Below are positions 8,677 through 26,070 of a DNA stretch of 64,000 bases, in pieces. The DNA is from an uncultured Gemmatimonadota bacterium (GTDB taxonomy: Bacteria > JAAXHH01), in contig OX638340.1 in assembly GCA_951812955.1 (NCBI GenBank), positions 3,424,001 through 3,488,000 of the forward strand. The letters are read 5' to 3'. Made by a program: the position numbers and the translations under genes. How positions within the stretch are numbered: position 1 is the first letter of the stretch; every line of letters begins with the position of its first letter. A model generated the notes under the pieces. The model searched no databases. It worked only from the letters and a program-made list of their open reading frames with translations, and had not been told where the DNA came from.

Positions 8677-8728
8677 GGATGTGGCACCGAGCCCTGTCGG
8701 CGGTCCGTCTATGGCGCCGGACGGAGCT

Positions 8729-8862
8729 CGAATGTGACCGATCCGCGTCGCCGGCTGGATCCCGAATGTGACCTATCTGCTGCGACGGCCGAACTTGATG
8801 TGACCGATCCGCGGGGCCGGCCGAATTCGAATGTGACCGGTCCGCGGCGATGGCCAGAATTA
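8729..8862. repeat. degenerate ~34-bp tandem repeat x4 (core gaatgtgaccgatccgcg) between the DUF6702-like gene and hupE/ureJ
   Basis: Four successive units beginning cgaatgtgaccgatccgcg / cgaatgtgacctatctgctg / gatgtgaccgatccgcgg / gaatgtgaccggtccgcgg, seen directly in the sequence. Confidence 0.7.
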
Positions 8863-8872
8863 TGGCGGGAAG

Positions 8873-9445
8873 ATGTCTGAATTTCAAGTCTATCTGCAAA
8901 TCGGTTTCGACCATATATCGGACCTGAACGCCTACGATCACATCGTTTTCATCATCGCCCTGTGCGCCGCCTATCCGCTGAACCGGTGGCGCTCGGTGCT
9001 TCTGCTCGTTACGGCTTTCACGATCGGGCACTCGATCACCCTGGCGCTGGCCACGATGCGCGTCATACTGGTCCCATCGGACTTGGTCGAGACGCTGATC
9101 CTATTGACGATACTGGCGACCTGCCTGATGAACGTTTACCGGCCGTTCGAGGGCAAAATCGGCCGCAAGACAAGTTACGGACTGGCCCTGTTCTTCGGCC
9201 TGATCCACGGCCTGGGTTTCTCGAACTACCTGAGGGCGCTTCTCGGCATGGAGGAATCGATCATCGTGCCGCTCCTGTCCTTCAACATCGGGCTGGAACT
9301 GGGCCAGTTGATGATCGTGGGGCTCTTCACGGTCGCAGCCTTCGTGTTTCTCAGGGTGCTCGGAACGCCGCACCGACAATGGAACCTGTTCGTATCGGGC
9401 GCGGCCGCAGGTGTTTCAGCCATGTTGCTGTTGGGGGCGGGTTGA
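8873..9445 (+). CDS. HupE/UreJ family metal (Ni/Co) transporter
   Basis: 190 aa, 6 TM. Signature GFDHISDLNAYDHIVFII and GHSITLALA motifs of HupE/UreJ. Confidence 0.75.
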   Translation: MSEFQVYLQIGFDHISDLNAYDHIVFIIALCAAYPLNRWRSVLLLVTAFTIGHSITLALATMRVILVPSDLVETLILLTILATCLMNVYRPFEGKIGRKTSYGLALFFGLIHGLGFSNYLRALLGMEESIIVPLLSFNIGLELGQLMIVGLFTVAAFVFLRVLGTPHRQWNLFVSGAAAGVSAMLLLGAG

Positions 9446-9646
9446 AAAGCTGCCGGGGCGGGTTGGCATAGGGGTTGAACATGGCGACGGGACTGGCCTG
9501 ATCCGCGGAGCGGTCGAACTGAACTGGGACAAGTTGTAGAGCTGCCGGGATGAGTTGCGCATGGCGCCGCCCGGGTCGGATCTGCATCGCATCAAGTAAG
9601 CGCTGCATCCGAAAGTCGAATCTCGTGATATGGAGGACGCACCATC

Positions 9647-10075
9647 GTGACGCTGGACACGACGATAGAAGAAGTGCTGGAAGACTTCGAATACCTGGAT
9701 GACTGGGAAGAACGCTACCAGGAAATCATCGACCTGGGCAGGAAGCTGCCGGTCCTGGACGATTCCTACAGGACGGAAGCGTACCGGGTCAAGGGATGCG
9801 TGAGCCAGGTCTGGTTCGTACCCCACGTCGCGGATACCCTGCCGCCCACCATCTCCTTCCAGGCCGACAGCGACGCCCATATAGTCCGCGGCCTCGTGGC
9901 CATCCTGCTCATGGTCTACTCGGGCAAGACCGCGCGCCAGATCCTGGAAGCCGATATCGAAGGCATCTTCAACAGGCTGGACCTCGCGTCCCACCTCAGC
10001 CCAAGCCGAAGCAATGGTTTCCGGTCCATGGTGAAGAAGATCCGGTCCATCGCGGACGCCGCAATGGCAAACTAG
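9647..10075 (+). CDS. sufE: SufE-like cysteine desulfuration protein
   Basis: GTG start. Conserved YRVKGCVSQVWFV active-site cysteine motif of SufE. 142 aa. Confidence 0.75.
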   Translation: MTLDTTIEEVLEDFEYLDDWEERYQEIIDLGRKLPVLDDSYRTEAYRVKGCVSQVWFVPHVADTLPPTISFQADSDAHIVRGLVAILLMVYSGKTARQILEADIEGIFNRLDLASHLSPSRSNGFRSMVKKIRSIADAAMAN

Positions 10076-10102
10076 CTCCTACCTGCCTGATCATCCCCTC
10101 AT

Positions 10103-10260
10103 CGGAACCGTCGCGGCCACTGACCACAGGACTCGATCACGGTTCCGTCGCGGCCACATGACTCGGTCACGGTTCCGTCGCGGCCACATGACTCGGGCAA
10201 GGTTTCGTCGCGGCCACAGGACTCGGGCAAGGTTCCATCGTGGCCACTCAACTCGGCCAA
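10103..10260. repeat. 30-bp tandem repeat (~5 copies) immediately 3' of sufE
   Basis: Unit ggttccgtcgcggccacatgactcggtcac repeated with minor variants. In frame it reads MTRSRFRRGHMTRARFRRGH..., but there is no supported CDS. Confidence 0.75.
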
Positions 10261-10299
10261 TTTACAGTATTATCCACTCGACCCTGTCACGGTGCAGTC

Positions 10300-11250
10300 C
10301 TATCCACCCAATTCGGACACGAGCCCATCGAGTTGCGTTCGATGTTCGTCGGACAGTTCCCAACCCACTGAGTCGACGTTCTGCTCGACCTGGGCCGGTC
10401 GCGTTGCACCGCACAGGACCGACGTGATGCCGGGCTGCCGGGACGTCCAGTGGATGACGAGCTGGGCGAGGGATTTGCCATATTCATCCGCGATAGACTT
10501 CATTCGGCCGAGCATGTCGAGGGTTCGGGCCAGTTCCTCCCCCTGGAACCTGGGATCGTCGTTGCGTGAGTCGCCTTCCGGAAACCGGTGGCCCCTTCCG
10601 TATTTGCCTGTCAGCAGGCCCTTGTACAGCGGCCAGTAGGAGATCACCCCGATGTTGTTATCGCGGCAGTGGGGGAGAATCTGAGCCTCGATGTCGCGGA
10701 TGAGCATGTTGTAGGGCGGCTGATCCGAGTGCAGCGGCGCATGGCGTGCGAAGTCCTCCATTTGCGCCACGTCGTAATTGCTTACGCCAATCGCCCGGAT
10801 CTTGCCCTGTTCTTTCAGTTCGGCCAGGGTGACTGCCGTTTCCTCAAAGGGTGTGTTCTCGTCCGGCGCGTGCACCTGGTACAGGTCGATGTAGTCCGTA
10901 TTCAGACGTCGCAGACTCTCCTCGACCTGCTCCAGGACGCGTTTCCTGGAGCTGTCGCGCAGCAGCGTGGTGCCGTCCCAGTACAGTCCGCATTTCGTCG
11001 CAAGGACGATCTCGTCCCGTCGGCCTGAGATAGCCCGGCCTACCAGTCGTTCCGATTCGCCGCTGCGCCCGTACATGTAGGCGGTGTCGATGAGGGTTAT
11101 CCCGCCGTCCATGGCGCTTTCCAGCGCAGCCAGGGACGCGTTGTCGTCGATTCCGGTCCATCCGACGCCGGCCATAGGCCAGCAGCCCATGCCGATGACC
11201 GATACCGACAATCCCGATTCACCGAGCGCTCTGTATTCCATATTCGCCAT
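10300..11250 (-). CDS. aldo/keto reductase family oxidoreductase
   Basis: Start trimmed to MANMEYRALGESGLSVSVIGMGCW (ATG at 11250). The track ORF extends 107 codons further upstream, with no homology. Typical AKR motifs. Confidence 0.8.
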   Translation of the reverse strand: MANMEYRALGESGLSVSVIGMGCWPMAGVGWTGIDDNASLAALESAMDGGITLIDTAYMYGRSGESERLVGRAISGRRDEIVLATKCGLYWDGTTLLRDSSRKRVLEQVEESLRRLNTDYIDLYQVHAPDENTPFEETAVTLAELKEQGKIRAIGVSNYDVAQMEDFARHAPLHSDQPPYNMLIRDIEAQILPHCRDNNIGVISYWPLYKGLLTGKYGRGHRFPEGDSRNDDPRFQGEELARTLDMLGRMKSIADEYGKSLAQLVIHWTSRQPGITSVLCGATRPAQVEQNVDSVGWELSDEHRTQLDGLVSELGG

Positions 11251-11586
11251 CCTTTGACGGAAGATCCGGGCACGTTCAGGTCCGTCCGGAGAAGGCCGGC
11301 GGACCGCCCGCGATCGATACGATTTCCAATTGACGAGGTGGGGCGGGAAACATATATTGAATGTAATTACGTGTTCCCGGTACGGTAGAATATACCACGT
11401 AACTTTTAAGCATTCAATCGATATAGACCAGGAAACTGCAGCATAGACCAGGAAACTGCAGTATATACCAGGAATAGGCAGTGACCGGCCTTCGGTTGCG
11501 CTCAATCGGTCGACCAGCCGGCAGTTAACTCCGGTAAATCCGAAAAATCTCATAAATCTCATAAATCCCATGGCAGGGAGGTAGAT

Positions 11587-12234
11587 ATGTTGAAAACCGG
11601 TTTAACCCTGATGGTCGCGATGGTTCTTGCGGCGTCTCCGGCAATGGCGGGTTCTCCGACGGTTACCGGCGATTACGTGGAAGTGCGCTCCAACCACATC
11701 CTGGGCGGCGGCTGCACCTATTCGGCGGAAGCCGGCGGCGATGCCAACCAGGCCGTCGTGGCGTGGCGCGTCCGTGACGGAGCGCTGGCCGATCTGTCCG
11801 TCGTTGCCGTCATTCTCGGGAAAGGCAACCTGCAACTCGGTCACCATGCACGCGAAACCGTGCTGCTGATCGACAGCCGGGCCACGCCGACCCAGCGCCA
11901 GGTCTTGAAGAGCACCTTCACGGCACGCTACGGCGAACTTTTCGGTACGGTGAAGACGGTGAAACCCACCGACATTTCCTTCCGCCACGACGGCGGGGAC
12001 ACCTACGCGGTTTCGGTGGACGGCCAGGTTCGCGTTTCTACCCGGACCATGGTTGCGACCGACCATGAGCCCAACTGCGACCGCATGGTTTGGTACGATC
12101 CCTTCACGAAGGACGCGTCGGCTTCGCTGGTCCAGACCGCGGCCCACGCATACAGCGGATCTGACCTGATCGCCACGTGGAGCATCCCGAACAAGCGCAG
12201 CGCTTACGTGGGAACCTTCTCCTTCACGCCGTAA
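11587..12234 (+). CDS. secreted hypothetical protein (possibly DUF1326-like)
   Basis: GGGAGG RBS. Signal peptide MLKTGLTLMVAMVLAASPAMA. 215 aa. Weak resemblance to DUF1326 C-terminal segments. Confidence 0.4.
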   Translation: MLKTGLTLMVAMVLAASPAMAGSPTVTGDYVEVRSNHILGGGCTYSAEAGGDANQAVVAWRVRDGALADLSVVAVILGKGNLQLGHHARETVLLIDSRATPTQRQVLKSTFTARYGELFGTVKTVKPTDISFRHDGGDTYAVSVDGQVRVSTRTMVATDHEPNCDRMVWYDPFTKDASASLVQTAAHAYSGSDLIATWSIPNKRSAYVGTFSFTP

Positions 12235-12377
12235 ACTGAATCGGCGACCATGAACCAAGATAAGAAGCCGGCGAGGCGGTGTTCGTTCGCCGGCTTCTGT
12301 TATTTATCTACTTAGTCTCTTGATATCTATCTACTTAGTCTAAGGACGGAGAGCAGACCACGGCGCTCGGACTCCTA

Positions 12378-13214: not shown

Positions 13215-13242
13215 GGCAGGCGGCGATCCGTACGACTGACCG

Positions 13243-13350
13243 CGCGTCGGCGGCGAATCCGCGTTGATTACCGAGCGCGTTGGCGGCGAATCCGCGTCGA
13301 TTGGTGAGCGCGTCGGCGGCGAATCCGCGTTGATTTCCGAGCGCGGTCTG
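13243..13350. repeat. 34-36-bp tandem repeat x3 immediately 3' of the membrane-protein gene
   Basis: gcgcgtcggcggcgaatccgcgttgattaccgagc repeated three times with point variants. Confidence 0.75.
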
Positions 13351-13531
13351 CTATATATGTAAAACACAATTTGAATGTTGATTCTTATTTTGATCAATGT
13401 TGACAATATAAAAATCCACGTTTCTAGATAAAGCGGCCACCCGCGTGTTACAACCGCGAGTATCGGGCGCAACTACGCAACACGGAGCGGAAGTACCACT
13501 CCCCCGCGCAGTGCCTTAGAGGTGATATTTC

Positions 13532-15271
13532 GTGATCCTGGACATTGACCGCACAGGCAGGATAGTGGGCATCGGCAGCAACGTCATGGACGTGATCTAT
13601 CGGGTAAACCGAATCGCGGGACCGGAGGAAAAAACCTATATCCTGCCGAATGAACATGGCGCGGTCGTGACCGAGGTAACAGGCGGCGTGACGCTGAACC
13701 ATCTGGCGTGGACGGCCCAGATGGGCGTCCCCGCCGGTCTTTTTGGATTTCAAGGGGACGACCGGTTCGGCGCTATGATCCGGGACGAAATGGACCGCCA
13801 CGGTATCGATCGGTCGGCCGTTCGGGTCCTCGAGGGCCGCGCATCCGGTTTTTCGGTGGTGAACGTGGCCGACGACGCGGACCGGGCAATTTACATGGCC
13901 CGCGCTCTGACGGCGGAGACCTCGGCTGCGGACGTAGAGACGTATTTTGCCGGGTACATTTGTTCCGCCGCGATGGTGACGACGGAAATATCCCAACTCC
14001 CGCTGGACGCCGTTATCGCGGTCCTGCGCATAGCCCGCGAGGCTGGCGTGCCGACCGTGCTGGACGTGGACGTCCCGCCGGAATTCGCCACCGAAGTGGC
14101 CGGACTCGGTTCCGCCGAAGATTTCGAAGAGGCCCTGCGTCTCGCCGACGTCGTGAAACCCGCCAAGGCCGCCGCATCGCAGATAGCAGCAGCCGAGAGT
14201 TCAGAGGAACGGGCCGAGCGTATTTTCAACCGGTACGGCGCCCGGCTGGTGGCCATCACCGAAGGGGCGCAAGGTTCGGTCGTCACCGACGGGAAGCAGA
14301 CGATCCGCACGCCTGCGAAACCCGTGGAAGCCCGGGACACCACCGGCGCGGGAGATGCCTTTCTGGGCGGCCTGATTGCGGGTATATACCACGGATTTGC
14401 GTTACAGGACATCGCATCGCTCGCCAATGCCTGCGGCGCTGTATGTTGCCGCATCCCGGGGGCCTTCCCGCAACTGGGTTCGAGCCGGGACGACGTTATC
14501 AGCCTGTACGAAGGCACTCCGATTCCTGCCGGGACCGCATCGGAATCGGTTGCAGGTCCGGAACCTGGGATCATCCCGGAGTCGGGGATCGTCCCGCAGT
14601 CGGAGATCGTCCCGCAGTCGGGGGTTGTGACCGAAAGCCTTGACGATTCCGGTTCAGCGACCGCGGGTGCAGCCGGCCTGAATGCCGTGCGGCGGACCGC
14701 TGCCGCCCTTTCCGGACTGTATGACGGCATGTCTGACACCTACTTTGACGAAGCCGTCGCGATTATCCGGAAGGCAGAAGCGGCCGGCGGGCGCGTACAC
14801 GTCACCGGTGTGGGGAAGTCCCGGCACATCGGCCACAAGCTGGCGGCCACGCTGCAGAGCACGGGAACGAAGGCGTATTTCCTCGATCCAGTCGACTGCA
14901 ACCACGGAGACAGTGGACAGGTAGCGGAAGGGGACGTGGTCGTCGCCCTGTCTCACAGCGGGGAGACGGAGGAACTGATGGCAGCCGTTGAAACCCTCGC
15001 CGCGATCGGTGCGATACTCATCGCAATCACCGGGCACGCCGCATCCAGTCTGGCCCGTTCGAGTGCGGCGACCCTGCACGTTCCCGTTGACCGCGAAGGC
15101 GGTCCCCTGGGACTCGCGCCGACCGTGAGCACGTCCTGCCAACTCGCCGTGGCCGACGGACTCGCCATGGCCCTGAAGGCCTGCCGTGGGTTTACCCGGG
15201 AAGACTTCGCCCGGTACCATCCCGGCGGGCGTATTGGAAGGCAACTGCGGGACAGTGAAGCCGAAAACTGA
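13532..15271 (+). CDS. fusion protein: PfkB-family sugar kinase (N-terminus) + KpsF/GutQ-like SIS sugar-phosphate isomerase domain (C-terminus)
   Basis: GTG start with AGAGGTGA RBS. PfkB motifs GIGSNVMDV... and DTTGAGDAFLGGLIAG. Linker with in-frame repeats (PESGIVPQSEIVPQSGVV). C-terminal VHVTGVGKSRHIGHKLAATLQSTGTKAYFLDPVDCNHGDSGQV matches SIS domains of arabinose-5-phosphate isomerases. Confidence 0.75.
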   Translation: MILDIDRTGRIVGIGSNVMDVIYRVNRIAGPEEKTYILPNEHGAVVTEVTGGVTLNHLAWTAQMGVPAGLFGFQGDDRFGAMIRDEMDRHGIDRSAVRVLEGRASGFSVVNVADDADRAIYMARALTAETSAADVETYFAGYICSAAMVTTEISQLPLDAVIAVLRIAREAGVPTVLDVDVPPEFATEVAGLGSAEDFEEALRLADVVKPAKAAASQIAAAESSEERAERIFNRYGARLVAITEGAQGSVVTDGKQTIRTPAKPVEARDTTGAGDAFLGGLIAGIYHGFALQDIASLANACGAVCCRIPGAFPQLGSSRDDVISLYEGTPIPAGTASESVAGPEPGIIPESGIVPQSEIVPQSGVVTESLDDSGSATAGAAGLNAVRRTAAALSGLYDGMSDTYFDEAVAIIRKAEAAGGRVHVTGVGKSRHIGHKLAATLQSTGTKAYFLDPVDCNHGDSGQVAEGDVVVALSHSGETEELMAAVETLAAIGAILIAITGHAASSLARSSAATLHVPVDREGGPLGLAPTVSTSCQLAVADGLAMALKACRGFTREDFARYHPGGRIGRQLRDSEAEN

Positions 15272-15290
15272 AGGTTCAGGAAGGAACGCC

Positions 15291-16199: not shown

Positions 16200-16325
16200 G
16201 CGGCGACTGTTGAACCGCGACCGTCGAGCGGTAGCTGATGAGCGGGACGCGTCGATTCGTGTAATAACGACGGACGGTGGCCGGCATACCGGACCGTGCC
16301 CGCGGCTCTAACGGAACTCCTCCCC

Positions 16326-18284
16326 ATGACCACTTCCCTTCTTGATCATCTTAGATCTTCCCTGCTGGTGGCTGATGGCGCGAGCGGAACCATGCTGTAC
16401 GCCCGCGGCGTTCCGATAGAGGTCTGTTTCGACGAGATCAACCAGAGCCGACCCGACCTGATCCGGCGTATCCACGAGGAATACGTGGATGCGGGAGCCG
16501 GTCTGATCGAGGCCAACACCTTCGGGGCCAATGCCCTGTCTCTCTCCAAGTACAACCTCGAGGACCAGGCGGAATCACTGAACGCCCGCGGCGTCGAGAT
16601 CGCCCGGGCGGCGGCAGGATCCCGGGCCTACGTAGCGGGGGCCGTCGGGCCGGCCCGCGGCCTACCCCACCTGGAATACACCGAAGCGGACTACGACAGG
16701 GTCTACCGTGAACAGATCTCGGCCCTGGCCGGCGGCGGTGCGGACGCGATCATCCTGGAGACCTTCCTCCGGCTCAATGAACTGACCGGGGCGCTGGCGG
16801 TCTGCCGCGACGTCTGCGACCTCCCCGTGATCTGCCAACTCGCGGTGGACCAGTCGGGACAGACCGATGACGGGTACGGCGTCGCGAATGCCTTCGATCA
16901 ACTGCGCGCGGCCGGCGCCGACGTGGTGGGGGTGAACTGCCGCAGCGGCCCCAAGGGCCTGCTGGACGCGCTTGCGCCGGTTCCCCTTGAGGATGGGCTC
17001 ATCCTCTCGGCCTTCCCCAACGCAGGCTCCCCGGTATACGTGGACGGACGATTCATCTACGAGGCTACGCCCGAGTACTTCGCAACGAGCGCGCTCCGGC
17101 TGCGCGACCAGGGCGTGCGCCTGATCGGCGGGTGCTGCGGGACCATGCCCGATCACGTCCGGGCCATGGCCCAGGCGCTCGAAGGCAGGGAGATCGTCAC
17201 GCGGAAGAAGGTCGTCCCGGTGGCAGTCCGAGCTCCGGCCAGCAAGGCCAGCACGGCCAGCAAGGCTCCCCCGGCCCGCCCTGACCGCCCTGGCCGACCG
17301 ACTCGTCCTGGCCGTCCCGACCAACCTGGTCAGCCTGACCACACTGACTATCCGCCGCGCAAACCCCCGGCGGCCGAACCGTCGATCGTGGACCTGGTCC
17401 GCAAGCGGGTGACCGTCATCGTTGAGCTCGACCCGCCCCGTGACCTGGACCACGAACCCATCGTAAGGGGCGCCATGGCCCTGAAGGAGGCGGGCGCCGA
17501 CGCCTTGACCATGGCCGACAATTCCCTCGCCGTCACGCGGATCAGCAACATGGCCATGGGACAGATCGTCAAGGAGGAAGCGGGTATCCGGCCGCTGTTG
17601 CACATCACCTGCCGGGACAGGAACCTGGCCAGCCTGCAGTCCCAGGTGCTCGGCCTGCATGCCCTGGGTATCGACCACGTCCTCGCCGTCACGGGCGACC
17701 CCGTCAAATTCGGCGATCAGCCGGGAGCCAGCAACGTCTACGACGTTTCCTCATTCGAACTGATCAGACTAATAAAGCAAATGAACGAGGGAGTGGGTTT
17801 TTCGGGCCGGCCCTTAAACGGCAAAACCGGATTCACCGTCGCGGCGGCCTTCGACCCCAATGGTACCAACCTGGACAGAAGGATCCGGAGGCTGGAACGA
17901 AAAGTCGAGGCAGGCGCCGACCTGATCATGACGCAACCGCTGTTCGACCGACGCCAGGCCAGGGCGCTTTACGAAGCAACCCGCGATGCCGGCGTCCCCA
18001 TACTGCCGGGCGTCATGCCCCTGGTCAGCGAAGGAAACACGGAATTCCTCCACAACGAAGTACCGGGATTCGTGGTGACCGACGACGTTCGTGCGCGCAT
18101 GGCCCGCGCGGGCCGGGGTAGAAAGGCCCGACGGGAGGGCATCGCAATCGCCAGGGAGATCATCGAATCCGTCCTGACCTACTTCAACGGTCTATACCTG
18201 ATCACGCCCTTCAACCGTTATCCCATGACGGTGGAGCTGACGGAATTCGCCCTGCAGGGCGTTGAACGCTCCGAATCCCGATAG
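16326..18284 (+). CDS. bifunctional homocysteine S-methyltransferase / 5,10-methylenetetrahydrofolate reductase (YitJ-like)
   Basis: N-terminal Hcy-binding domain (LVADGASGTMLY...GCCGT). Pro-rich linker (PDRPGRPTRPGRPDQPGQPD). C-terminal MetF-like TIM barrel (VELDPPRD...HITCRDRN...AGADLIMTQPLFD). Confidence 0.8.
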   Translation: MTTSLLDHLRSSLLVADGASGTMLYARGVPIEVCFDEINQSRPDLIRRIHEEYVDAGAGLIEANTFGANALSLSKYNLEDQAESLNARGVEIARAAAGSRAYVAGAVGPARGLPHLEYTEADYDRVYREQISALAGGGADAIILETFLRLNELTGALAVCRDVCDLPVICQLAVDQSGQTDDGYGVANAFDQLRAAGADVVGVNCRSGPKGLLDALAPVPLEDGLILSAFPNAGSPVYVDGRFIYEATPEYFATSALRLRDQGVRLIGGCCGTMPDHVRAMAQALEGREIVTRKKVVPVAVRAPASKASTASKAPPARPDRPGRPTRPGRPDQPGQPDHTDYPPRKPPAAEPSIVDLVRKRVTVIVELDPPRDLDHEPIVRGAMALKEAGADALTMADNSLAVTRISNMAMGQIVKEEAGIRPLLHITCRDRNLASLQSQVLGLHALGIDHVLAVTGDPVKFGDQPGASNVYDVSSFELIRLIKQMNEGVGFSGRPLNGKTGFTVAAAFDPNGTNLDRRIRRLERKVEAGADLIMTQPLFDRRQARALYEATRDAGVPILPGVMPLVSEGNTEFLHNEVPGFVVTDDVRARMARAGRGRKARREGIAIAREIIESVLTYFNGLYLITPFNRYPMTVELTEFALQGVERSESR

Positions 18285-18424
18285 TCAGCCAGCGCTGCCG
18301 GCAAGGCAACCAGCCCGGCCGGACACCGGCGAGTCCGGCAATCAGCGCGTCCGAAAATCGGTGTGTCCGAATACGTGAGCCTGCGCGGCCGGAATTCAGC
18401 GCGTCCCGGATCGCACCGGCGCGG

Positions 18425-20458
18425 TCAGGAAGCCGGCCGATTGCGGTAGTAAAGGTAGGATACGGCGGTGAGGATAGCGCTCAGGGCGAGGAAGCCGATG
18501 ATGCGATACAGCGTGTCCAGCATCATGAGGTCGAAGACGAAGGCTTTCACCACGGTGCATCCGAAGTAGACGATGGCCGCGGCGCGAAGTGCCCGGATAT
18601 CCAGCAAACGCCCGAGGAGCATGACGAGGGTCGCGCCAATCAGCCAAACGCCCGAAACGGCCAGCTGGCGCAAGTTTTCCAATTGATTCAGCGAACCATC
18701 CCCAAGTGTGATGATCCGGTACTGGAAATAGCTCAGGATTTCCACCGTACCCCAGACCAGGAGAAGAAACGACCAGGCCACGTGAAAGATCGAAAACAGC
18801 ACGCGGTCACGCCTCGTTTCGTCGCTCCTCGTTTCCTCGCTCCTCGTTTCGTCGCTCCCTGTTTCCTCGCTCCTCGTTTCATCGCGGCCCTGCAGCATGC
18901 CGGCGCAGACAAGCAGCAGTCCTCCCACCACCCAGTAAGCACCGGTGCGCAACGATAGAATCGGCACATAAGCAGAAACGAGGTTGGACACGATCGTCCC
19001 GCCGTGGAGGAATATCGCTACGAACGAAAGGGCAGCCAGTGCCGTCCCGGCGTGACGGACCGGTCGCGTGCCGTAGTGGACACCAAACCAGAACAACGCG
19101 AAGGCTTCGAGGGCCCAGGCAATGATCACGCCGTAACTGAAGAAAAAGCTTATCGGTGCGAGCACCGCAAGCAGCACGGCTACCGTCGCGTGCTCCGCGG
19201 CCGCGGGCCGGTCATCGGTTCGCCGGACAATCCACGCCGTGAGCCCGAAGTACACCAGCGATAGGACCGCGGTCGCGACACCCCCGGAATAGTCCGCAGC
19301 GTGCTGCTCGTACTGAAACTGGACGCCGAAAAAGTCCCACAGGCCTTCCGTGTGCCACGTAAGGCGCATGAGCATCACGTAGTAGCCCAGTACGTTGATC
19401 GCTATTGCCGCCCGCCGCCACCACCTGTTCCCCGGGTCGCCCGTGACCGAGCGCAAGAGGTTCGTCCCCGCAAACAGCATCCACCAAAGCGTCAAAAAGG
19501 CCAGGGCGGTTCCGAGACCTTCGGGCAGGTCCGCCCGGAACGACCAGGTCAGGTAGATTCCGTAAGTGGCCGCGACAGCCAGCAGTTCGAGCAGCCGCCA
19601 TCTGCGCCGCCTCACCAGGATGGCGATCAGGCCGGCGTCGAGCAGCGTAAGGTATACGAAGAGACCGAGGGTGTTCAGTTCGGCCGTGACGAGGAGGAGG
19701 GGGGTCAGGAATCCGCCGGCCCATCCCAGCAGGGCGATGGCCCGCGCGTCGTAGTACAGGGAAATCAGCAGGGCGGCGGCCGTTACCAGGGTCATGAGGA
19801 AAAAGGCGACGGGCTGCGGCACAAGATGGTAGAAGTCGAAAGCTGCGTAGATCGACAGGTATAGAATCGCCACGCCCGCGCCGGTCAGCCCATGGGAGAA
19901 AACGGACATTTGACGCCGATGGAATCGGTAGCCACCGGCGATCAGCAACATGCCGGCCGCTCCGCCCAGGATCACGCGCGCGGTTTCATTCAACCAGTCG
20001 TTGTCGAAAGCATATTTCAGGAAGAATCCCGCGGCGAGAATGAGCGCCAGGGCGCCCGCACGGTTCAACAGCTTGCCGCCGAAAAGAATCTCCCACTCTT
20101 CTCGGGTGCGTGGCCGCAGCATGTGGGCAACCCGGCCGGGCGTTCGATGCGGTACGGGTTCACTCGCCAGTGCCCCTCCCGCCAGTGCCCCTCCCGCCAG
20201 TGCCCCTCCCGCTAGTGCCCCTCCCGCCGCCGGAGATTCCTCCGTTGTTTCTTCTATCGTTTCTTTTGCCGTTTCCTTCGTGGTCTCTTCCGTTTCTTCT
20301 GTCGTCTCCTCAACTCCCCGTCCGGCTGGCGCCGTACCGGTTGTCCCGGTCTTCCGTCTTATGACCTCCTCGAGTTTCCGGACTCGTCCCGATAGAGACA
20401 GGTACGTCCCGACGAGGAAAAGGATTAGCAAGATGTTGAAAACGATCAGTAGTTCCAT
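18425..20458 (-). CDS. DUF2339-like polytopic membrane protein with in-frame microsatellites
   Basis: 677 aa. N-terminal TM plus coiled coil (RVRKLEEVIRRK). More than 12 TM helices. In-frame repeats TEETEETTKETAKETIEETTEE, GGALAGGALAGGALAGGALA and ETRSEETGSDETRSEETRSDE. Confidence 0.6.
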   Translation of the reverse strand: MELLIVFNILLILFLVGTYLSLSGRVRKLEEVIRRKTGTTGTAPAGRGVEETTEETEETTKETAKETIEETTEESPAAGGALAGGALAGGALAGGALASEPVPHRTPGRVAHMLRPRTREEWEILFGGKLLNRAGALALILAAGFFLKYAFDNDWLNETARVILGGAAGMLLIAGGYRFHRRQMSVFSHGLTGAGVAILYLSIYAAFDFYHLVPQPVAFFLMTLVTAAALLISLYYDARAIALLGWAGGFLTPLLLVTAELNTLGLFVYLTLLDAGLIAILVRRRRWRLLELLAVAATYGIYLTWSFRADLPEGLGTALAFLTLWWMLFAGTNLLRSVTGDPGNRWWRRAAIAINVLGYYVMLMRLTWHTEGLWDFFGVQFQYEQHAADYSGGVATAVLSLVYFGLTAWIVRRTDDRPAAAEHATVAVLLAVLAPISFFFSYGVIIAWALEAFALFWFGVHYGTRPVRHAGTALAALSFVAIFLHGGTIVSNLVSAYVPILSLRTGAYWVVGGLLLVCAGMLQGRDETRSEETGSDETRSEETRSDETRRDRVLFSIFHVAWSFLLLVWGTVEILSYFQYRIITLGDGSLNQLENLRQLAVSGVWLIGATLVMLLGRLLDIRALRAAAIVYFGCTVVKAFVFDLMMLDTLYRIIGFLALSAILTAVSYLYYRNRPAS

Positions 20459-20687
20459 GATCGTGCATACTAAGCCCCCCGAAGGCGCCGTGTCAAGTTA
20501 CTCCTCCGGTCTCGAGATCCTGGCGGCGGTGTGATCACATCTCTGGAGAATCCGGGATCGTTGACATGGTTCATACAGCCGTCTATATTCCGTTCGCTTG
20601 CCGATACACACCTTAGTGAACAAGCGAAAGTGAATAAGCGGATCCTTCGCGGAATCGAATTCAATAAGTTTCAGAGAGGAGCCTTTG

Positions 20688-21776
20688 ATGTCCACGGTCT
20701 ATCGCGTCGGCATAATCGGGTGCGGCAGCATCTCGCACCTCCACATGAAGGGATACCTGGGCGAAGAGCGGTTCGAGGTCGTCGCACTATCGGACCCGGT
20801 TGCCGAGGCCAGGAAGGATTTCGGTGACCGCTACGGAATCGAAAAACGCTATGCCGATGTCCGTGAGATGATGGACACCGAGGGCCTGGACGTCGTCAGC
20901 ATCTGCACCTGGCACAAGCTGCACGCCCCCCTGACCATCGCCGCCTGCGCGCGTCGGCCGAAGGCCATCCTGTGCGAGAAGCCCATGGCCGTCAACATGG
21001 GGGAGTGCGACGAGATGATGATCGCGGCGCGGCGGAACGACGTGAAGCTCGCCATCGCCCACCAGCGCCGTTTCAATCCGGTCTGGACCGACGCCCGGAA
21101 CCTGGTGGCGGAAGGGGCGATCGGCGACGTGCGCCACGTCCACTGCAGTGGCAGCCAGGGCCTGCTGAACGACTGCTCCCACATGTTCGATTTCATGCGC
21201 TACGTCCTGGGCGATCCCGCGCCGGAGTGGGTGATGGGGAACATCGAACGCAAGACCGACCGGTACGAGCGGGATATCCGCATCGAGGACCGCAGCGCGG
21301 GAATCGTGGGCTTTGACAACGGCGCCGTGGGACAACTCCTGCAGGAGCTTCATCCGGAACGCCGCCAGGGCGGTTACCTCTACGGAACTGACGGCATGAT
21401 GGACGTGAACGAGCAGCGCGTTCTGCTTATCAATTCGAAGACCGGCGGCTGGGAGGAACGGCCGTCCACCGGCGAGGATCCGAGTGTGGGCCAGGCCGTG
21501 GAACTGGCTGACTGGATCGAAGGCAAGTCGGAACACCGGGGAGAGGCCTCGAACGGCCGGGCTGCCGTGGAGATCATCATGGGGATCTACGAGTCGGCGC
21601 GGCTTCACGAGGTCGTCCAGATGCCCGTGCGCACCCACAGTTCGCCCATCGAGGAAATGCTCGAGGCTGGCGACCTGCCCGTGGAACGCCCCGGCCGGTA
21701 CGACATTCGCGCCTTCCTCCTGCGCGGGGAGTCCATGCAGGGTGAGGAGCCGGACGAAGAAGATGAGGAAGAATGA
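20688..21776 (+). CDS. Gfo/Idh/MocA family NAD(P)-dependent oxidoreductase
   Basis: Rossmann motif VGIIGCGSISHLHMKGY. EKP motif LCEKPMAV. Acidic C-terminal tail EEPDEEDEEE. Confidence 0.8.
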   Translation: MSTVYRVGIIGCGSISHLHMKGYLGEERFEVVALSDPVAEARKDFGDRYGIEKRYADVREMMDTEGLDVVSICTWHKLHAPLTIAACARRPKAILCEKPMAVNMGECDEMMIAARRNDVKLAIAHQRRFNPVWTDARNLVAEGAIGDVRHVHCSGSQGLLNDCSHMFDFMRYVLGDPAPEWVMGNIERKTDRYERDIRIEDRSAGIVGFDNGAVGQLLQELHPERRQGGYLYGTDGMMDVNEQRVLLINSKTGGWEERPSTGEDPSVGQAVELADWIEGKSEHRGEASNGRAAVEIIMGIYESARLHEVVQMPVRTHSSPIEEMLEAGDLPVERPGRYDIRAFLLRGESMQGEEPDEEDEEE

Positions 21777-21791
21777 CCGGTCACGGTCCCG

Positions 21792-21866
21792 TGACCACGC
21801 TCAGACCGACGAGACCCGCGACCACGCTCAGACCGACGAGGCCCGTGACCACGCTCAGCAGGGCGA
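21792..21866. repeat. 27-bp tandem repeat x~3 immediately 3' of the Gfo/Idh/MocA gene
   Basis: gaccacgctcagaccgacgagacccgc x2 plus a partial copy. Preceded by the perfect hairpin ccggtcacgg-tc-ccgtgacc. Confidence 0.75.
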
Positions 21867-21930
21867 AGTTCGATCCGAGGCGGATATCGGCGGAGCAGGC
21901 GACGGTGCACAGATCGGCGAAGCACGCAAA

Positions 21931-22929
21931 ATGGCGGAGATCGGCCGAACGGGGTTGATGGTCAGCCGCCTGGGTCTGGGCGGCGCACCGCTGGCCGGTC
22001 TGTACCAGGGGGTTTCCGACGAGCAGGCCTCCCGGGTTGTGAACACCTACCTCGATCACGGCCCCGGATTTATCGACACGGCCCCGCTCTACGGCAGCGG
22101 CGTGAGCGAGACAAGGTTGGGCGCCGTACTATCGGAGCGAGTCCGCAATGCGCGCGTATTCTGCGACGGTCGCGGTTCCTTTGTGCTCGCCACCAAGGTG
22201 GGCCGCCTCCTCGTGCCCGACCCGGCGCGGGACCAGGACGTGTGGTCTGAGGATCTCCCGCCCGTCGGCCCCGTCTTCGACTACAGCTACGACGGCACGC
22301 TACGGTCTCTCGATGAGAGTCTCGCTCGCCTTGGCCTGGATAAGGTGGATATCCTCCATATCCACGACCCGGACAACCACTACGATGAGGCGATGAGGGG
22401 CAGCTACCGGGCGCTCGTAAGAATGCGCGACGAGGGAGTCATCCGGGCGGTCGGCGTTGGCATGAACCAGGCGAAAATGCTGGCCCGTTTTTCCCAGGAA
22501 GGTGACTTCGACTGTTTTCTTTGTGCGGGCAGATACACCCTGGTGGACCACACGGCGCTCAAGCGGCTGCTGCCCCTGTGCGAAGAACGCAAGATCAGCC
22601 TCATTATCGGCGGGCCCTACAACAGCGGCATCCTGGCGCAGGGCGCTGTGGAAGGGGCGAAGTTCGATTACCGGAAAGCACCGCCCGGGATCGTGGAGCG
22701 GGTTCGTCGCGTCGAAACGGTGTGCGGCCGCCACGGCACGCCCCTGAAGGCGGCGGCGCTGCAGTTCCCCCTGGCCCATCCAGCGGTGGCAGCGGTCATT
22801 CCGGGTGCGCGTTCGCCTGAGGAAGTGGATGAGAACGTGGCGATGGCGGAGTTTGAGATTCCGGCGGATTTCTGGGCGGAACTTCGACAGGAAGGGTTGA
22901 TCCCTGACGAGGCGCCCACGCCCGGATAG
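21931..22929 (+). CDS. aldo/keto reductase family oxidoreductase
   Basis: MAEIGRTGLMVSRLGLGGAPLAG... The track ORF began 149 codons upstream, inside the tandem-repeat region, and was trimmed. Confidence 0.8.
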   Translation: MAEIGRTGLMVSRLGLGGAPLAGLYQGVSDEQASRVVNTYLDHGPGFIDTAPLYGSGVSETRLGAVLSERVRNARVFCDGRGSFVLATKVGRLLVPDPARDQDVWSEDLPPVGPVFDYSYDGTLRSLDESLARLGLDKVDILHIHDPDNHYDEAMRGSYRALVRMRDEGVIRAVGVGMNQAKMLARFSQEGDFDCFLCAGRYTLVDHTALKRLLPLCEERKISLIIGGPYNSGILAQGAVEGAKFDYRKAPPGIVERVRRVETVCGRHGTPLKAAALQFPLAHPAVAAVIPGARSPEEVDENVAMAEFEIPADFWAELRQEGLIPDEAPTPG

Positions 22930-23128
22930 TGAAGTAGGTCGCATGTATATCTAAAAACGCGGAAAAATATATTGTCAATATTGATGAAAATAACAATCAA
23001 CCTATAAATCCGGTTTTGATATATATGAGGGACGCCCCTCGCCACGGTCCGCTGCCGGTAGTGTGCGCCTCGCGCCCGGCTGGCTCCGTGCCCCTCAGTC
23101 CGCGAAACGCACTTGAAAGGAGATCCCA

Positions 23129-23485
23129 ATGACCGCATCTGAGAACGCATCTGAAGCCACTCCCCAACGCTATGGCATGGTCCTCAAGGTCAAGCCTGAC
23201 CGGATCGAGGAATACAAGGCATACCACGCCGAGGTCTGGCCCGGCGTTGCGAAGAGGATCACGGAAAGCAACATCACCAACTACTCCATCTATCTGAAGG
23301 ACGATTACCTCTTCTCCTATTTCGAGTACGTCGGGGACGATTTCGAGGCGGACATGGCTAAAATGGCCGCCGACCCGGTCACGCAGGAGTGGTGGGACGT
23401 GATGATGCCGATGCAGGACCCCCTGCCAACGCGGAAGGAAGGCGAATGGTGGGCGAATATGGAGGAAGTCTTTCACCAGGATTGA
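23129..23485 (+). CDS. rhaM: L-rhamnose mutarotase
   Basis: AAAGGAG RBS. YGMVLKVKPDRIEEYKAYHAEVWPGV...NYSIYLKDDYLFSYFEY...WWDVMMPMQ...EEVFH matches the RhaM family end-to-end. Confidence 0.75.
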   Translation: MTASENASEATPQRYGMVLKVKPDRIEEYKAYHAEVWPGVAKRITESNITNYSIYLKDDYLFSYFEYVGDDFEADMAKMAADPVTQEWWDVMMPMQDPLPTRKEGEWWANMEEVFHQD

Positions 23486-23778
23486 GTACAAACACTTCCC
23501 AGACGGACTTTCATATGTTCGTTCGTCTTAGACCGTTGCCAATGAACCGATTGTCGATTATGTTTTCGGGTACTACCCATCCGGTATTGTTTGAGAAATA
23601 ACAGTCCGGTATTGTGCGAGTACTACTCATCCGGCATCGTGCGAGTAATTCTTTTCAGGTATTGAATGAACGCACCAATGATAAGGTTTGAGAAAAGTTA
23701 ATGATGAGATTAAAGAAGAGTTTTAAAAGAAAACTCAGGATATCATAGGAAAACATAGGAGAACATAGGAGAACGTCC

Positions 23779-24672
23779 ATGGCCCTGACTGAAGCGCAAC
23801 TGGCTGAATTCCACGACCGCGGATTGGTGGTCGTGGAAGACGTGCTGGCCGACGCCGATCTCGATCCCGTGATCGACGCGATGACGGAGTATGTCGACCT
23901 GCAGGCACGGAAACTGCAGGCCGAGGGCAAGATCGCCGACCTGCATGAAGACGAACCCTTCCTGACACGATACGCCCGGTTGTTCGCCCAAAGCACGGAG
24001 ATCGGCCACGGGATGGATATCTACGACCTGCGGGCGAAGGCGGTCTTCGATTTCCTGCGGAACGACAACCTGCTCGACGCCGTGGAATCCCTGGTGGGAT
24101 CCGAAATCACCTGCTCGCCGATCCAGCACCTGCGGGCCAAGCCGCCGTCCCGCCTTGACGCCAGCCCGTCCTATAACGTGCCCTGGCACCAGGATTCCGG
24201 GGTGAGCTGGGCGGAGTCCGACAAGACCCTGGCGCTGACCTGCTGGCTGCCCCTCGTGGACGCCACGGTGGAGCGGGGCTGCCTGGAGGTGATCCCGGAC
24301 GTGATCAAGGTCGGCCATCTCGACCACGTGTCGGACGCCGGAACGCGTATAAAACCGGACCTCATGCCCGAGACCGAAGCGCTACCGGCTGAAGTGCGCA
24401 AGGGCGGGGTCGTTTTCCTGAGCCAGTATACACCGCACCGTTCGACGCCCAACCTGACGCAGTGGGATGTGCGCTGGAGCCTTGACCTGCGGTACGTGGC
24501 CTACGGTGAGCCGACTGGGCGGCCCTTCTTTCCCGATTTCTGCGTGCGGAGCCGCACCCATCCTGAACGGGTCCTGACCGATCACCAGGTCTGGGCCGAC
24601 AGCTGGGTCGCGGCCCTTGAGGAACAAATACGCAATCCCAAGCAGGCCCACCGTGTCGCCCAGGAACCCTGA
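23779..24672 (+). CDS. phytanoyl-CoA dioxygenase (PhyH) family Fe(II)/2-oxoglutarate oxygenase
   Basis: LTEAQLAEFHDRGLVVVEDVL... WHQD His motif and C-terminal His. The RBS region carries three copies of aacataggag. Confidence 0.7.
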   Translation: MALTEAQLAEFHDRGLVVVEDVLADADLDPVIDAMTEYVDLQARKLQAEGKIADLHEDEPFLTRYARLFAQSTEIGHGMDIYDLRAKAVFDFLRNDNLLDAVESLVGSEITCSPIQHLRAKPPSRLDASPSYNVPWHQDSGVSWAESDKTLALTCWLPLVDATVERGCLEVIPDVIKVGHLDHVSDAGTRIKPDLMPETEALPAEVRKGGVVFLSQYTPHRSTPNLTQWDVRWSLDLRYVAYGEPTGRPFFPDFCVRSRTHPERVLTDHQVWADSWVAALEEQIRNPKQAHRVAQEP

Positions 24673-24709
24673 GGACACCTGATCCAAGAGGCACACCATG
24701 CTTTGAGGC

Positions 24710-24919
24710 CTGACCTCAGGCGCCAGGTTCGGCGCCCTTCTCGGCAGTCTGATCATTCCCGGTCTGGGACAGTTGTACCAGGGTCGCAGGCCGGCCGCGG
24801 TCATACACTTCATCCTCGCGGTCGTGATCTGGTTGATCGGCTACGGCTGGATCGTTCATCTGTATTCCGCGGTCGACGCGGCATTTCAGGCACCGCGCGG
24901 CGAAGGCTGCAAAACGTAA
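24710..24919 (+). CDS. possible small membrane protein (PGLGQLYQG motif)
   Basis: Open frame ...LGSLIIPGLGQLYQGRRPAAVIHFILAVVIWLIGYGWIVHLYS... ending at TAA 24917-24919. No ATG start (CTG or other non-canonical start only). Low confidence. Confidence 0.25.
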   Translation: MTSGARFGALLGSLIIPGLGQLYQGRRPAAVIHFILAVVIWLIGYGWIVHLYSAVDAAFQAPRGEGCKT

Positions 24920-24941
24920 ACCTTACAGTCCTGGTTACGGT

Positions 24942-25058
24942 GAACGCATCGGCGCCCGCCGGCAGGGGTGCGCGTCTCTGATCGCATCGGCGCCCGCTGG
25001 CAGGTGCGCGTCTATGAACGCATCGGTGCTCGCCGGCAGGGGTGCACGTCTGCGAACC
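24942..25058. repeat. ~40-bp tandem repeat x3
   Basis: gaacgcatcggcgcccgccggcaggggtgcgcgtct(ctgatc) repeated three times with variants. Confidence 0.75.
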
Positions 25059-25098
25059 ATAAACCAGACAAACCACATTCAACAGGAAGAGGTCATGC

Positions 25099-25965
25099 AT
25101 GAGTTTCGGTAACGGGGCCTACAGGTACGAGGTGCAGGAAAACTGGTGGAAGCTTCCTGAAGGGTGGTCCTTCGGATGGATAACCGGAGTCGCCTGCGAT
25201 TCAAAGGACCAGGTGTACGTCTATTCCCGAAGCGAGCATCCCCTGGTGGTCTTCGACCGCGACGGAACGTTTGTCAAGACCATCGGCGACGGCATACTGA
25301 AGGACGCTCATGGTATATACATCGACGGAGAGGACAACATCTTCCTGGTCGACTGGCTGGACCACTGCGTCCGCAAGTTCGACGCGGACGGGAACCAGGT
25401 CCTGGTGATTGGCACGCCCGGTGTTCCGAGCGACAACGACGGTGATCCTTTCCGCAAGCCGACGGAAGCGGTCGTCGCGCCGAACGGAGATATCTACGTG
25501 TCCGACGGGTACGACAACGCCCGGGTACACCGGTACGACGCCGAAGGGAACCACATCCACTCCTGGGGCAGCTGGGGTGACGGCCCCTCCCAGTTCGCGC
25601 TGAGCCACTGCGTCCGCATTGACCGGCATGACCGGCTGTGGGTGTGTGATCGTGAAAACCAGCGCATCCAGCTATTCGACCTGGAAGGCAAGTTTATCGA
25701 GGAGCGACACGTTCCTGGCAAACCCGACACCGTCTACTTTGATCCGGTAGAAGATATAGCGTACGTGGCCGAGCTGGAACAACAGGTGGGTATCTACACC
25801 CTGGACGGCGACCTGGTCAGCAGCTGGGGCGGCGGTAAGCGGAGCGATCGGCCGGGCGAATTCGCCGGCTGTCCCCACGGCATCTGGATGGACTCCCACG
25901 GCGACCTCTATGTCGGCGAAGTTCAGGCCGACGCCAGGCTGCAGAAGTTCGTGAGATCGAGGTAA
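25099..25965 (+). CDS. NHL-repeat beta-propeller protein
   Basis: 288 aa. Repeated ...VYVSDGYDNARVHRYD..., ...LWVCDRENQRIQLFD..., ...DLYVGEV... blades typical of NHL repeats. Confidence 0.7.
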   Translation: MSFGNGAYRYEVQENWWKLPEGWSFGWITGVACDSKDQVYVYSRSEHPLVVFDRDGTFVKTIGDGILKDAHGIYIDGEDNIFLVDWLDHCVRKFDADGNQVLVIGTPGVPSDNDGDPFRKPTEAVVAPNGDIYVSDGYDNARVHRYDAEGNHIHSWGSWGDGPSQFALSHCVRIDRHDRLWVCDRENQRIQLFDLEGKFIEERHVPGKPDTVYFDPVEDIAYVAELEQQVGIYTLDGDLVSSWGGGKRSDRPGEFAGCPHGIWMDSHGDLYVGEVQADARLQKFVRSR

Positions 25966-26070
25966 TTAGGCAATCGAGGACACTCGGCGACCGAGGTAAT
26001 CCGGCAATCGAGGACACTCGGCGATCGAGGTAATTCGGCAATCGAGGACACTCGGCGACCGAAGTAATAC
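25958..26070. repeat. 36-bp tandem repeat x3 anchored on the NHL gene's stop codon
   Basis: Copy 1 includes the last codons and the TAA of the NHL gene. Unit cgaggtaatccggcaatcgaggacactcggcgac. Confidence 0.8.

Follow-up and report, generated by a model that had tools for sequence, protein, structure and literature searches.

The DNA considered here is a 64,000-nucleotide stretch (the window) of contig OX638340.1, positions 3,424,001 to 3,488,000 in assembly GCA_951812955.1, from an uncultured Gemmatimonadota bacterium, and our subject is the set of short tandem repeat arrays that lie between and within its genes. The first half of the window is a string of genes that includes those for DUF2237, an M28 peptidase, DUF6702, HupE, SufE, aldo/keto reductases, DUF1326, EamA, PfkB-SIS, a homocysteine-methyltransferase/MTHFR fusion protein, DUF2339, rhaM, PhyH, an NHL protein and the hybrid kinase HK1, while the second half holds leucine-rich repeat (LRR), Ig-like and collagen-like genes, among which non-coding arrays are far sparser. 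Genes were mapped from codon-usage scores and Pfam matches, with starts then corrected by gene calls on near-identical contigs; the map also includes L33 and one small open reading frame (ORF). For the count against shuffled sequence, an array is a non-overlapping Tandem Repeats Finder (TRF) call with a unit of at least 10 bp and a score of at least 50; arrays are named below by their first position. The first-pass annotation of this sequence had located ten intergenic arrays and a further one at the start of an AMP-ligase ORF (33563-33659), and TRF calls fall within about 20 nt of all of these, with head-to-tail copies that can be read directly. It was also correct that the unit at 25958 holds the NHL gene's own stop codon (TAA at 25963-25965) and that in-frame arrays occur in PfkB-SIS, HK1, DUF2339 and the start of the AMP-ligase ORF, all of them outside Pfam domain limits. 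Its quantifiers were too generous. Many gaps in the first 30 kb are indeed occupied, but "almost every" gap comes down to 13 of the 20 gaps of at least 60 bp in the first 31 kb, and of the 16 non-coding arrays of the first 32 kb, about 10 bear out the statement that arrays typically start at or just after a stop codon, lying within 50 nt of one. The exceptions are the 11422 array, in a divergent promoter region, those at 4974 and 23729, which abut start codons, and those at 23570, 23677 and 29914, which lie 84-243 nt past a stop.

The number of arrays far exceeds that found in randomized sequence. The window contains 30, whereas 100 shuffles that preserved dinucleotide composition in 2-kb blocks averaged 0.33 and never exceeded 2, and at a score of at least 80 it retains 19 against 0 in the shuffles. 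This amounts to about 470 arrays per Mb. Relatives were collected through the homocysteine-methyltransferase/MTHFR fusion protein, which identified 19 syntenic loci at 82-95% amino-acid identity, in genomes assembled from metagenomes. These carry the labels Gemmatimonadetes, Candidatus Latescibacterota or plain "bacterium", and several are complete chromosomes, 3.7-3.97 Mb in length. The same query gave 55 outgroup loci from Bacillaceae, Verrucomicrobiota, Geobacteraceae and Chloroflexota with a G+C content of up to 0.65. Judged by the isolate names of the relatives, the clade is probably sponge- or coral-associated, which is consistent with the LRR, NHL and collagen proteins of eukaryote-like type that the window encodes and agrees with the published description of sponge Latescibacterota (PMC12993501). 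Across the window and the 19 relatives TRF found 0.5-8.6 arrays per 10 kb, against 0-0.5 in most of the outgroup loci, including those with a G+C content of 0.60-0.65; per Mb, the outgroup loci hold roughly 0-50. Five independent regions of related genomes were reached via paralogous LRR and kinase genes (L092, L093, L094, L095 and the part of L090 beyond the window-syntenic segment). Densities in such regions were 2.3-4.9 arrays per 10 kb, with 11, 5, 8 and 3 arrays in L092, L093, L094 and the L090 part, while L095, from the low-repeat genome OZ253560.1, has 0 arrays in 22 kb that are syntenic with L094 and its 8. Because the relatives share one syntenic region, arrays in the same gap are not fully independent, which is offset by counting distinct periods and by the five other regions. 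Array density in this clade is thus about 20 times that of the other bacteria compared and is a trait common to the lineage, and the duplication process runs far more weakly in a sister subclade and the unrelated bacteria of the comparison. The low-density relatives (L008, L012, L015 and L027) have compact intergenic gaps. By their sampled regions, the complete chromosomes OY762445.1, OZ220749.1 and OZ241920.1 are rich in repeats, OZ241838.1 is intermediate, and OZ245326.1, OZ252103.1 and OZ253560.1 are poor in them. The papers that we located on sponge-associated Latescibacterota and PAUC34f make no mention of tandem DNA repeats, and general searches returned mainly eukaryotic and organellar studies.

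The arrays are concentrated in non-coding DNA, and the two compartments differ in the unit lengths that they hold. The window has 19 arrays in 12.1 kb of non-coding sequence (1.57 per kb) and 14 in 51.9 kb of coding sequence (0.27 per kb), and the lineage has 1.45 per kb of intergenic and 0.17 per kb of coding DNA, so that non-coding arrays are about 6-9 times denser; the non-coding figures for lineage and window together range over 1.4-3.4 arrays per kb. In the lineage the unit is divisible by three in 53 of 58 coding arrays but only 20 of 56 intergenic ones (Fisher p = 3e-10), the latter being the chance rate, with 36 of the 56 (64%) not a multiple of three. The window shows the same contrast, with divisible units in 14 of 14 coding and 7 of 19 non-coding arrays (Fisher p = 1.6e-4). 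A filter on reading frame therefore operates. Isolated duplications are in turn flanked by microhomology: of 27 in the lineage that are perfect and two-copy, 52% carry at least 4 nt of extra match where 1.9% would be expected, and 18.5% carry none where 54% would be expected. Slippage or template switching between short direct repeats leaves a signature of this kind, m-X-m-X-m. These properties invite comparison with the microhomology-mediated tandem duplications (MTDs) of fission yeast, which arise at 5-8 bp microhomology pairs with a strong preference for GC-rich microhomology, show frame bias in essential genes only, and are about 20-fold rarer in E. coli (PMC8639346). The clade duplications likewise lie between microhomologies, here of 4-10 nt, the arrays are likewise frame-biased in coding but not in intergenic DNA, and a return to single copy appears possible. 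MTDs, however, are rare subclonal variants (PMC8639346), whereas the arrays of this clade are fixed, comprise 2-10 copies, are of sufficient age for these to have diverged by 3-30%, and dominate the intergenic DNA.

The units are specific to their locus and originated in situ. Similarity between units of different arrays equals the shuffled expectation (mean 5.53 versus 5.55), no 4-mer is enriched more than 2-fold in the arrays, GATC shows no enrichment, and the arrays that straddle a stop codon are repeats of the gene's own last codons together with that stop, as in a 26 bp x2.9 (98% match), a 46 bp x2.1 (100%) and a 57 bp x3.1 (97%) example. A dispersed repeat family inserted between genes, whether MIRU-, REP- or MITE-like or a degenerate CRISPR-like element, would fit the intergenic position in operon-like gene strings and the overlap of some units with stop codons, which MIRUs are also described as overlapping. 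We nevertheless regard such a family as highly improbable, given units no more alike than shuffled ones, stop-straddling units that copy the 3' end of their own host gene, and the lack of spacers, terminal inverted repeats, adjacent cas genes or an Rfam match. Literal copies of a gene's own 3' end, together with the single copies seen in relative L016, exclude a mobile element. The likeness to MIRUs (mycobacterial interspersed repetitive units), which are also intergenic minisatellites in co-directional gene strings, overlap stops or starts and vary between strains (PMC12548453, PMC3635867), is one of setting. MIRUs are described as one sequence family, apparently mobile, with start-codon insertion and a translationally coupled ORF (PMC12548453), whereas each locus in this clade has its own unit without a shared consensus, 64% of the intergenic units are not multiples of three, and stops (19) are preferred over starts (3). 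CRISPR arrays were also considered, and the copies proved contiguous, without spacers, and free of cas domains among the neighbouring genes (Pfam). Phase-variation contingency loci have repeats of 1-7 nt, located in promoters or 5' coding regions, whose frameshifts switch expression; the present units are at least 9 bp long, the coding arrays of the window are all in frame, and the non-coding arrays are biased toward 3' ends.

The class that the arrays do resemble is that of bacterial variable-number tandem repeat (VNTR) or minisatellite loci, as used in multilocus VNTR analysis (MLVA) typing. These share the head-to-tail, locus-specific units of 10-100 bp in intergenic or in-frame genic positions, the derivation of units from local sequence, and whole-unit differences in copy number between strains. 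They differ in density, here about 470 per Mb with 13 of 20 gaps occupied in the first 31 kb, and in the large class found in this clade that duplicates the upstream stop codon. The arrays are thus a known kind of element at an unusual density and not a new molecular system.

The copy-number variation between strains that the first-pass annotation had proposed to look for is present as whole-unit differences over a range of 92-99.9% identity. Between the window and contigs with an identical SufE protein (92-95% nucleotide identity) such differences occur at ten loci, with coding arrays changing in steps of 18, 9 or 15 nt, and even at 99.0-99.9% identity some arrays differ in length between strains, by 1, 2 or 4 units (14, 58 or 71 nt). 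Presence itself is not conserved either. Orthologous gaps in the 19 relatives hold arrays of another unit length or none, and where there is none the gap is short, 4-40 nt in the compact relatives: the DUF6702-HupE gap measures 5-30 nt in compact genomes and 196-375 nt with arrays, and the gap between GFO and the second aldo/keto reductase 4 nt versus 157-246 nt. At loci with 2.6-4 copies in the window, relative L016 has about one. The sequences come from metagenome assemblies, and assemblers of short reads can make repeats collapse or expand, so that the arrays could in principle be artefacts of mis-assembly or of chimeras within metagenome bins. This seems barely credible, as five independent assemblies of one population (L080, L083 and L085-L087) agree exactly at all loci tested, including in array length, and the arrays appear in 5-30 kb contigs of other samples as well as in chromosome-scale contigs that reach 3.9 Mb, are shorter than 250 bp, and keep the reading frame where they are coding.

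The first-pass annotation described the arrays as anchored to gene 3' ends, and as a statistical bias that involves roughly a third to a half of them this is real, although it is not a rule. In the 61 arrays that lie in co-directional gaps, 26 begin within 15 nt of the upstream stop and 19 contain the stop codon, compared with only 7 that end within 15 nt of the next start. Under a null in which the first or last unit of an array may overlap a gene end, 8.4 stop-straddling arrays are expected against the 19 observed (P = 0.00025) and 8.5 start-straddling arrays against 3 observed (P = 0.02), so a stop filter operates alongside the frame filter. Counted by gap and period, the 19 stop-straddling arrays fall into 18 different combinations. 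Unit boundaries differ at one and the same stop codon, which marks the events as independent; at the DUF1326 stop, for example, the unit is 10, 13, 15, 22 or 52 bp in different relatives. In the independent regions the stop is included in 4 of 7 arrays lying just downstream of a stop codon. Within the window four arrays contain the upstream stop (DUF2237, M28, NHL and HK1) and six more begin 11-48 nt past one, including the 24941 array, which follows the small ORF and not PhyH. Per kb of gap, convergent gaps hold most arrays (3.7), followed by co-directional (2.05) and divergent gaps (about 1.0).

Two accounts of this bias, both built on the same duplication mechanism, have to be weighed. The account we prefer is tolerance: a duplication that includes the stop is tolerated because the upstream protein stays unchanged, and the apparent 3' anchoring follows because duplications that include a stop persist while those that include a start codon or ribosome-binding site, which do not spare the protein, are mostly purged. 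The ancestral junctions are so short (4-40 nt) that a duplication of 20-40 bp must take in a gene end. The alternative places the bias in mutation itself, with duplications born preferentially at stop codons through some event at gene ends, candidates being RNA polymerase or ribosome stalling, R-loops, transcription-replication conflicts or terminator hairpins. The excess of stop-straddling arrays over a null that permits straddling, the independent recurrence of duplications at the DUF1326 stop in different relatives, and the peak of density in convergent gaps all speak in its favour. We still judge such a hot spot unlikely, since short ancestral gaps and the depletion at starts predict the bias without it, and since arrays also occur in divergent promoter regions, beside start codons and within genes and show no excess hairpin potential. 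Tolerance is the simplest account of the 3' bias.

The proposal that the repeats act as terminators or RNA-stability elements found no backing, as the arrays show no excess of structure, T tails, C over G skew or conservation. Folding of 19 array strands against shuffles gave a mean z of -0.3 (range -2.6 to +1.6), that is, no excess stability. A promoter and terminator scan returned 18 terminator-like sites where 15.2 were expected, and the sole such site tied to an array end is a minus-strand hairpin at 21778-21797. T-rich tails follow only 6 of the 61 arrays, sense-strand C-G skew averages 0.004 (sd 0.32), without the C-rich, G-poor character of rut-like sites, and the window contains no Rfam families or tRNAs. 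Among known elements, REP/BIME palindromes and intrinsic terminators share the position downstream of genes but differ from the arrays, which lack a consensus, excess hairpin stability and a U tract; assignment to REP/BIME elements fails on the mean z and the missing common sequence, to intrinsic terminators on the number of sites and tails, and to Rho-dependent terminators on the skew. One clear terminator-like hairpin does occur downstream of DUF1326, near 12262-12305 (AAGCCGGCGA...TCGCCGGCTT and then a T-rich tail). Most relatives conserve its sequence and the compact ones lack it, and the hairpin is separate from the arrays, which in relatives with arrays at DUF1326 are located between the stop codon and the hairpin.

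Selected 3' elements, whether intrinsic or Rho-dependent terminators, REP-type stabilizers of mRNA or insulating spacers, would explain why many arrays lie just past stop codons, why the G+C content of arrays is slightly above that of the remaining gap sequence (0.613 versus 0.574) and why some, 13242 and 23570 among them, are retained by genomes with about 92-95% identity. We consider this very unlikely all the same. Besides the folding, tail, skew and terminator results, sequence, period and presence are not conserved, sister genomes lack arrays at the same junctions, copy number is polymorphic within a species, non-coding units are free of constraint on frame or length, and the single clear terminator hairpin is conserved and stands apart from the arrays.

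Taken together, the evidence makes it probable that the arrays are locus-specific minisatellites of the VNTR type, generated in this clade by microhomology-mediated tandem duplication or slippage at a high rate and filtered by selection. The unusual slippage or duplication signature that the first-pass annotation had perceived is accordingly borne out, by the excess in the lineage, the recurrence in independent regions, the whole-unit differences between strains, the microhomology and the frame filter. In the mechanism we propose, a native stretch of 10-130 bp (median unit 21 bp) would be duplicated head-to-tail between short direct microhomologies by replication slippage or template switching, and later slippage or unequal recombination would add whole units to the array or remove them. 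Coding DNA would retain in-frame units only, mostly in linkers and termini, and non-coding DNA units of every length. At compact junctions the duplications that persist would mainly be those that take in the upstream stop codon, those taking in a start codon or ribosome-binding site being mostly removed. We infer the slippage mechanism itself, a genetic cause for the elevated rate and the lack of a selected function.

Several observations weigh against this interpretation or limit its reach. The evidence base is the 64-kb window, the 19 syntenic loci of about 22 kb and the five other regions. Non-coding density in the window falls 8-fold, from 3.4 per kb in the first 32 kb to 0.41 per kb in the second, and the rate is therefore non-uniform, or the number of arrays depends on G+C content or on the residence time of the DNA. 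Stop-straddling is about 2.3 times above a null that already permits straddling, so tolerance alone may be insufficient for the stop bias and a mutational hot spot at gene ends may contribute. Single-copy alleles such as that of 21788 in L016 fit expansion and collapse alike, and some of the large microhomology values (at least 10 nt) may be partial third copies. The case against function draws on missing conservation and structure, and the genetic cause of the elevated rate is a matter of conjecture.

As to that cause, single-strand exonucleases suppress template switching at tandem repeats in E. coli. In the same species Uup and RadD suppress RecA-independent template switching between tandem repeats (PMC7145654), a type of process able to create, expand and contract arrays of this kind. 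Uup, RadD and single-strand exonucleases are on this comparison candidate genes whose loss could raise the duplication rate. A more far-reaching idea is that a lineage-specific change in replication or repair made one symbiont clade, and not its sister, a hyper-duplication mutator in which births favour gene 3' ends through transcription or translation termination; examples of such a change would be a lost suppressor of template switching or a gained slippage-prone polymerase. We regard this as a long shot.

The arrays of the window are listed in Table 1, together with the lengths of the same loci in other strains where these vary.

Table 1. Tandem arrays of the 64-kb window, with positions counted from its first nucleotide (a dot in the strand column marks arrays to which no strand is assigned).
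Position	Strand	Array and setting	Same locus in other strains	Basis
4974..5007	.	17 bp x2.0; ends at DUF2237 start codon (5005)		TRF; start from 119-aa gene calls in relatives
5355..5400	.	12 bp x3.9; includes DUF2237 stop TAG (5362-5364), TAG in every copy		TRF
8043..8079	.	12 bp x3.1; includes M28 peptidase stop TAA (8049-8051), 34-nt gap before DUF6702		TRF
8152..8219	+	18 bp x3.8, in frame, within DUF6702	anchor-to-anchor span 66, 84, 102 or 138 nt	TRF
8713..8849	.	34 bp x4.1; DUF6702-HupE gap, 36 nt past stop	about 1, 3 or 4 copies (gap 97, 164 or 196 nt)	TRF
10124..10260	.	30 bp x4.1; convergent SufE / aldo/keto reductase gap	gap 100, 137, 189, 215, 221 or 248 nt among strains with identical SufE protein	TRF
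11422..11474	.	20 bp x2.7; divergent (5'-5') promoter region, counter-example to 3' anchoring		TRF
13242..13345	.	33 bp x3.2; 27 nt past EamA stop, followed by conserved promoter and leader	x3.9 in L016	
14558..14621	+	18 bp x3, in frame, PfkB-SIS inter-domain linker	one-unit difference, 81 or 99 nt	TRF, Pfam limits
17235..17322	+	9/18 bp, in frame, linker of homocysteine methyltransferase-MTHFR fusion	68, 86, 95, 104 or 113 nt	TRF, Pfam
18305..18369	.	32 bp x2.0, degenerate; convergent gap, 20 nt past MetH-like gene		TRF
18812..18885	-	15/30 bp, in frame, within DUF2339	59, 89, 104 or 119 nt	TRF
20165..20308	-	two in-frame arrays (15 bp x4.3; 21 bp x2.8), variable N-terminal region of DUF2339		TRF, Pfam
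21788..21858	.	27 bp x2.6; 11 nt past GFO stop	single copy in L016	TRF
23570..23774	.	three adjoining arrays (25 bp x3.1 at 23570-23647; 23 bp x2.0; 10/20 bp x2.3-4.6), rhaM-PhyH gap		TRF
24941..25051	.	38 bp x3.0; 21 nt past stop of conserved small ORF (24710-24919)		TRF
25958..26068	.	34 bp x3.3; unit 1 contains the last codons and TAA stop (25963-25965) of the NHL gene		
27839..27893	+	21 bp x2.6, in frame (EVTSTGP repeats), HATPase-receiver linker of hybrid kinase HK1		
28611..28676	.	23 bp x2.9, degenerate; starts with HK1 stop TAA (28611-28613), copies open taa, tga, taa		
29914..29945	.	9 bp x3.6, weak; 190 nt past amidohydrolase stop		TRF
30108..30168	+	27 bp x2.3, in frame, within first epimerase gene		TRF
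33563..33659	+	15/45 bp, in frame, N-terminal part of AMP-ligase ORF		TRF, Pfam
37931..38054	-	33 bp x3.8, within doubtful 125-aa coiled-coil ORF (37850-38227)		TRF
38229..38382	.	two non-coding arrays (13/26 bp x2.3-4.7; 14 bp x3.6) upstream of large LRR protein gene		
49430..49496	.	33 bp x2.0, 94% match; 41 nt before thiolase start		TRF

Some of these arrays touch the ends of genes in ways that bear on their annotation or expression. In the 25958 array the motif cgaggtaa recurs in later copies. The 10/20 bp array of the rhaM-PhyH gap (23729-23774) contains a duplicated Shine-Dalgarno motif (AGGAG) and stops 4 nt short of the PhyH start codon, and a similar duplication is present in L016; as a rare start-adjacent case it might influence translation initiation of PhyH. 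At the junction of GFO and the second aldo/keto reductase (21760-21935), the reductase ATG of compact relatives overlaps the GFO 3' end (ATGAAGAAGGATGA), the 27-bp array of the window is in frame with an ATG that overlaps GFO, and the gene call in the close relative L091 is a 388-aa reductase overlapping GFO. The 21788 array may thus be a coding N-terminal extension of the second aldo/keto reductase and not intergenic. The AMP-ligase ORF measures 773 aa in the window and 737 aa in L091. The small ORF at 24710-24919 encodes a hydrophobic 69-aa product with weak similarity to DUF6677 (E = 1e-4, short of the Pfam cutoff), is conserved in L070 at 81% nucleotide identity, and is preceded by ATG CTT TGA, which implies a non-canonical start codon or a start that has been lost in this genome. 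Downstream of the EamA array, positions 13346-13531 hold an AT-rich promoter-like stretch and then a G+C-rich leader of about 110 nt before the GTG start of PfkB-SIS. This segment, unlike the adjoining array, shows conservation in L016 and, in part, in L070. A regulatory 5' untranslated region is one possible role; a permissive Rfam search of 13330-13560 gave one chance miRNA match and no family.

The hybrid kinase HK1 (26211-28613) has a paralogue in the window, HK2 (46414-48807), with 53% identity and the same GAF-PAS-HisKA-HATPase-receiver-winged-helix architecture; the 27839 array of HK1 has no counterpart in HK2. HK1 has arrays on either side in the window, is present in contig ptg000768l, and is missing from most relatives, in which 19 nt separate the NHL gene from the amidohydrolase gene. 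Nearly 8000 database matches at E<=1e-50 suggest that this kinase family is greatly expanded in sponge-associated lineages.

The region and its counterparts in relatives hold further repeats. The gap between the MetH-like gene and DUF2339 is 140 nt in the window and 640-1190 nt in many relatives (L014, L010, L008, L011, L012 and others), and the extra DNA carries long repeats with units of 33, 54, 75, 96, 117 and 129 bp, all multiples of three, which points to an additional repeat-protein gene that the window lacks. Just past the window-syntenic region of L090, at 20577-21587 of that contig, an 1836-aa CARDB/cadherin-like protein contains a 351-bp x2.9 in-frame repeat. In the second half of the window, an island at 36168-45514 encodes three eukaryote-like proteins with LRR and bacterial Ig-like domains (391, 1618 and 535 aa); its G+C content of 0.52-0.55 is below that of the rest of the window, and paralogues are scattered across related genomes. 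The genes at 55067-56599 and 57418-58452 encode collagen-like Gly-Pro-Ala repeats (GGTCCGGCG, up to about 10 copies) in higher-order units of 27-54 bp, one of the proteins being fused to a trypsin-like peptidase domain. These are repeats at the level of protein and distinct from the minisatellites.

What is unusual about the minisatellites is their scale, in the density of arrays, the occupation of most gaps in the core region, the class made up of a C-terminus plus stop codon, and the contrast between sister subclades. For this clade it means that intergenic DNA has largely been built by one mutational process, which has turned gaps of 4-40 nt into gaps of 100-400 nt, and it illustrates how fast bacterial spacers, protein linkers and C- or N-terminal tails can grow. 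Gene callers are prone to wrong starts and stops near arrays, and several long ORFs here begin inside one. The same loci offer dozens of VNTR markers per 20 kb with which strains of an uncultured symbiont can be tracked across hosts. The high- and low-repeat sister subclades constitute a natural experiment on how the rate of short tandem duplication is controlled in bacteria, and should the mutator state hold, its determinant would be mappable by comparing high- with low-repeat chromosomes, and the arrays would be a readable record of collisions between replication and gene expression.

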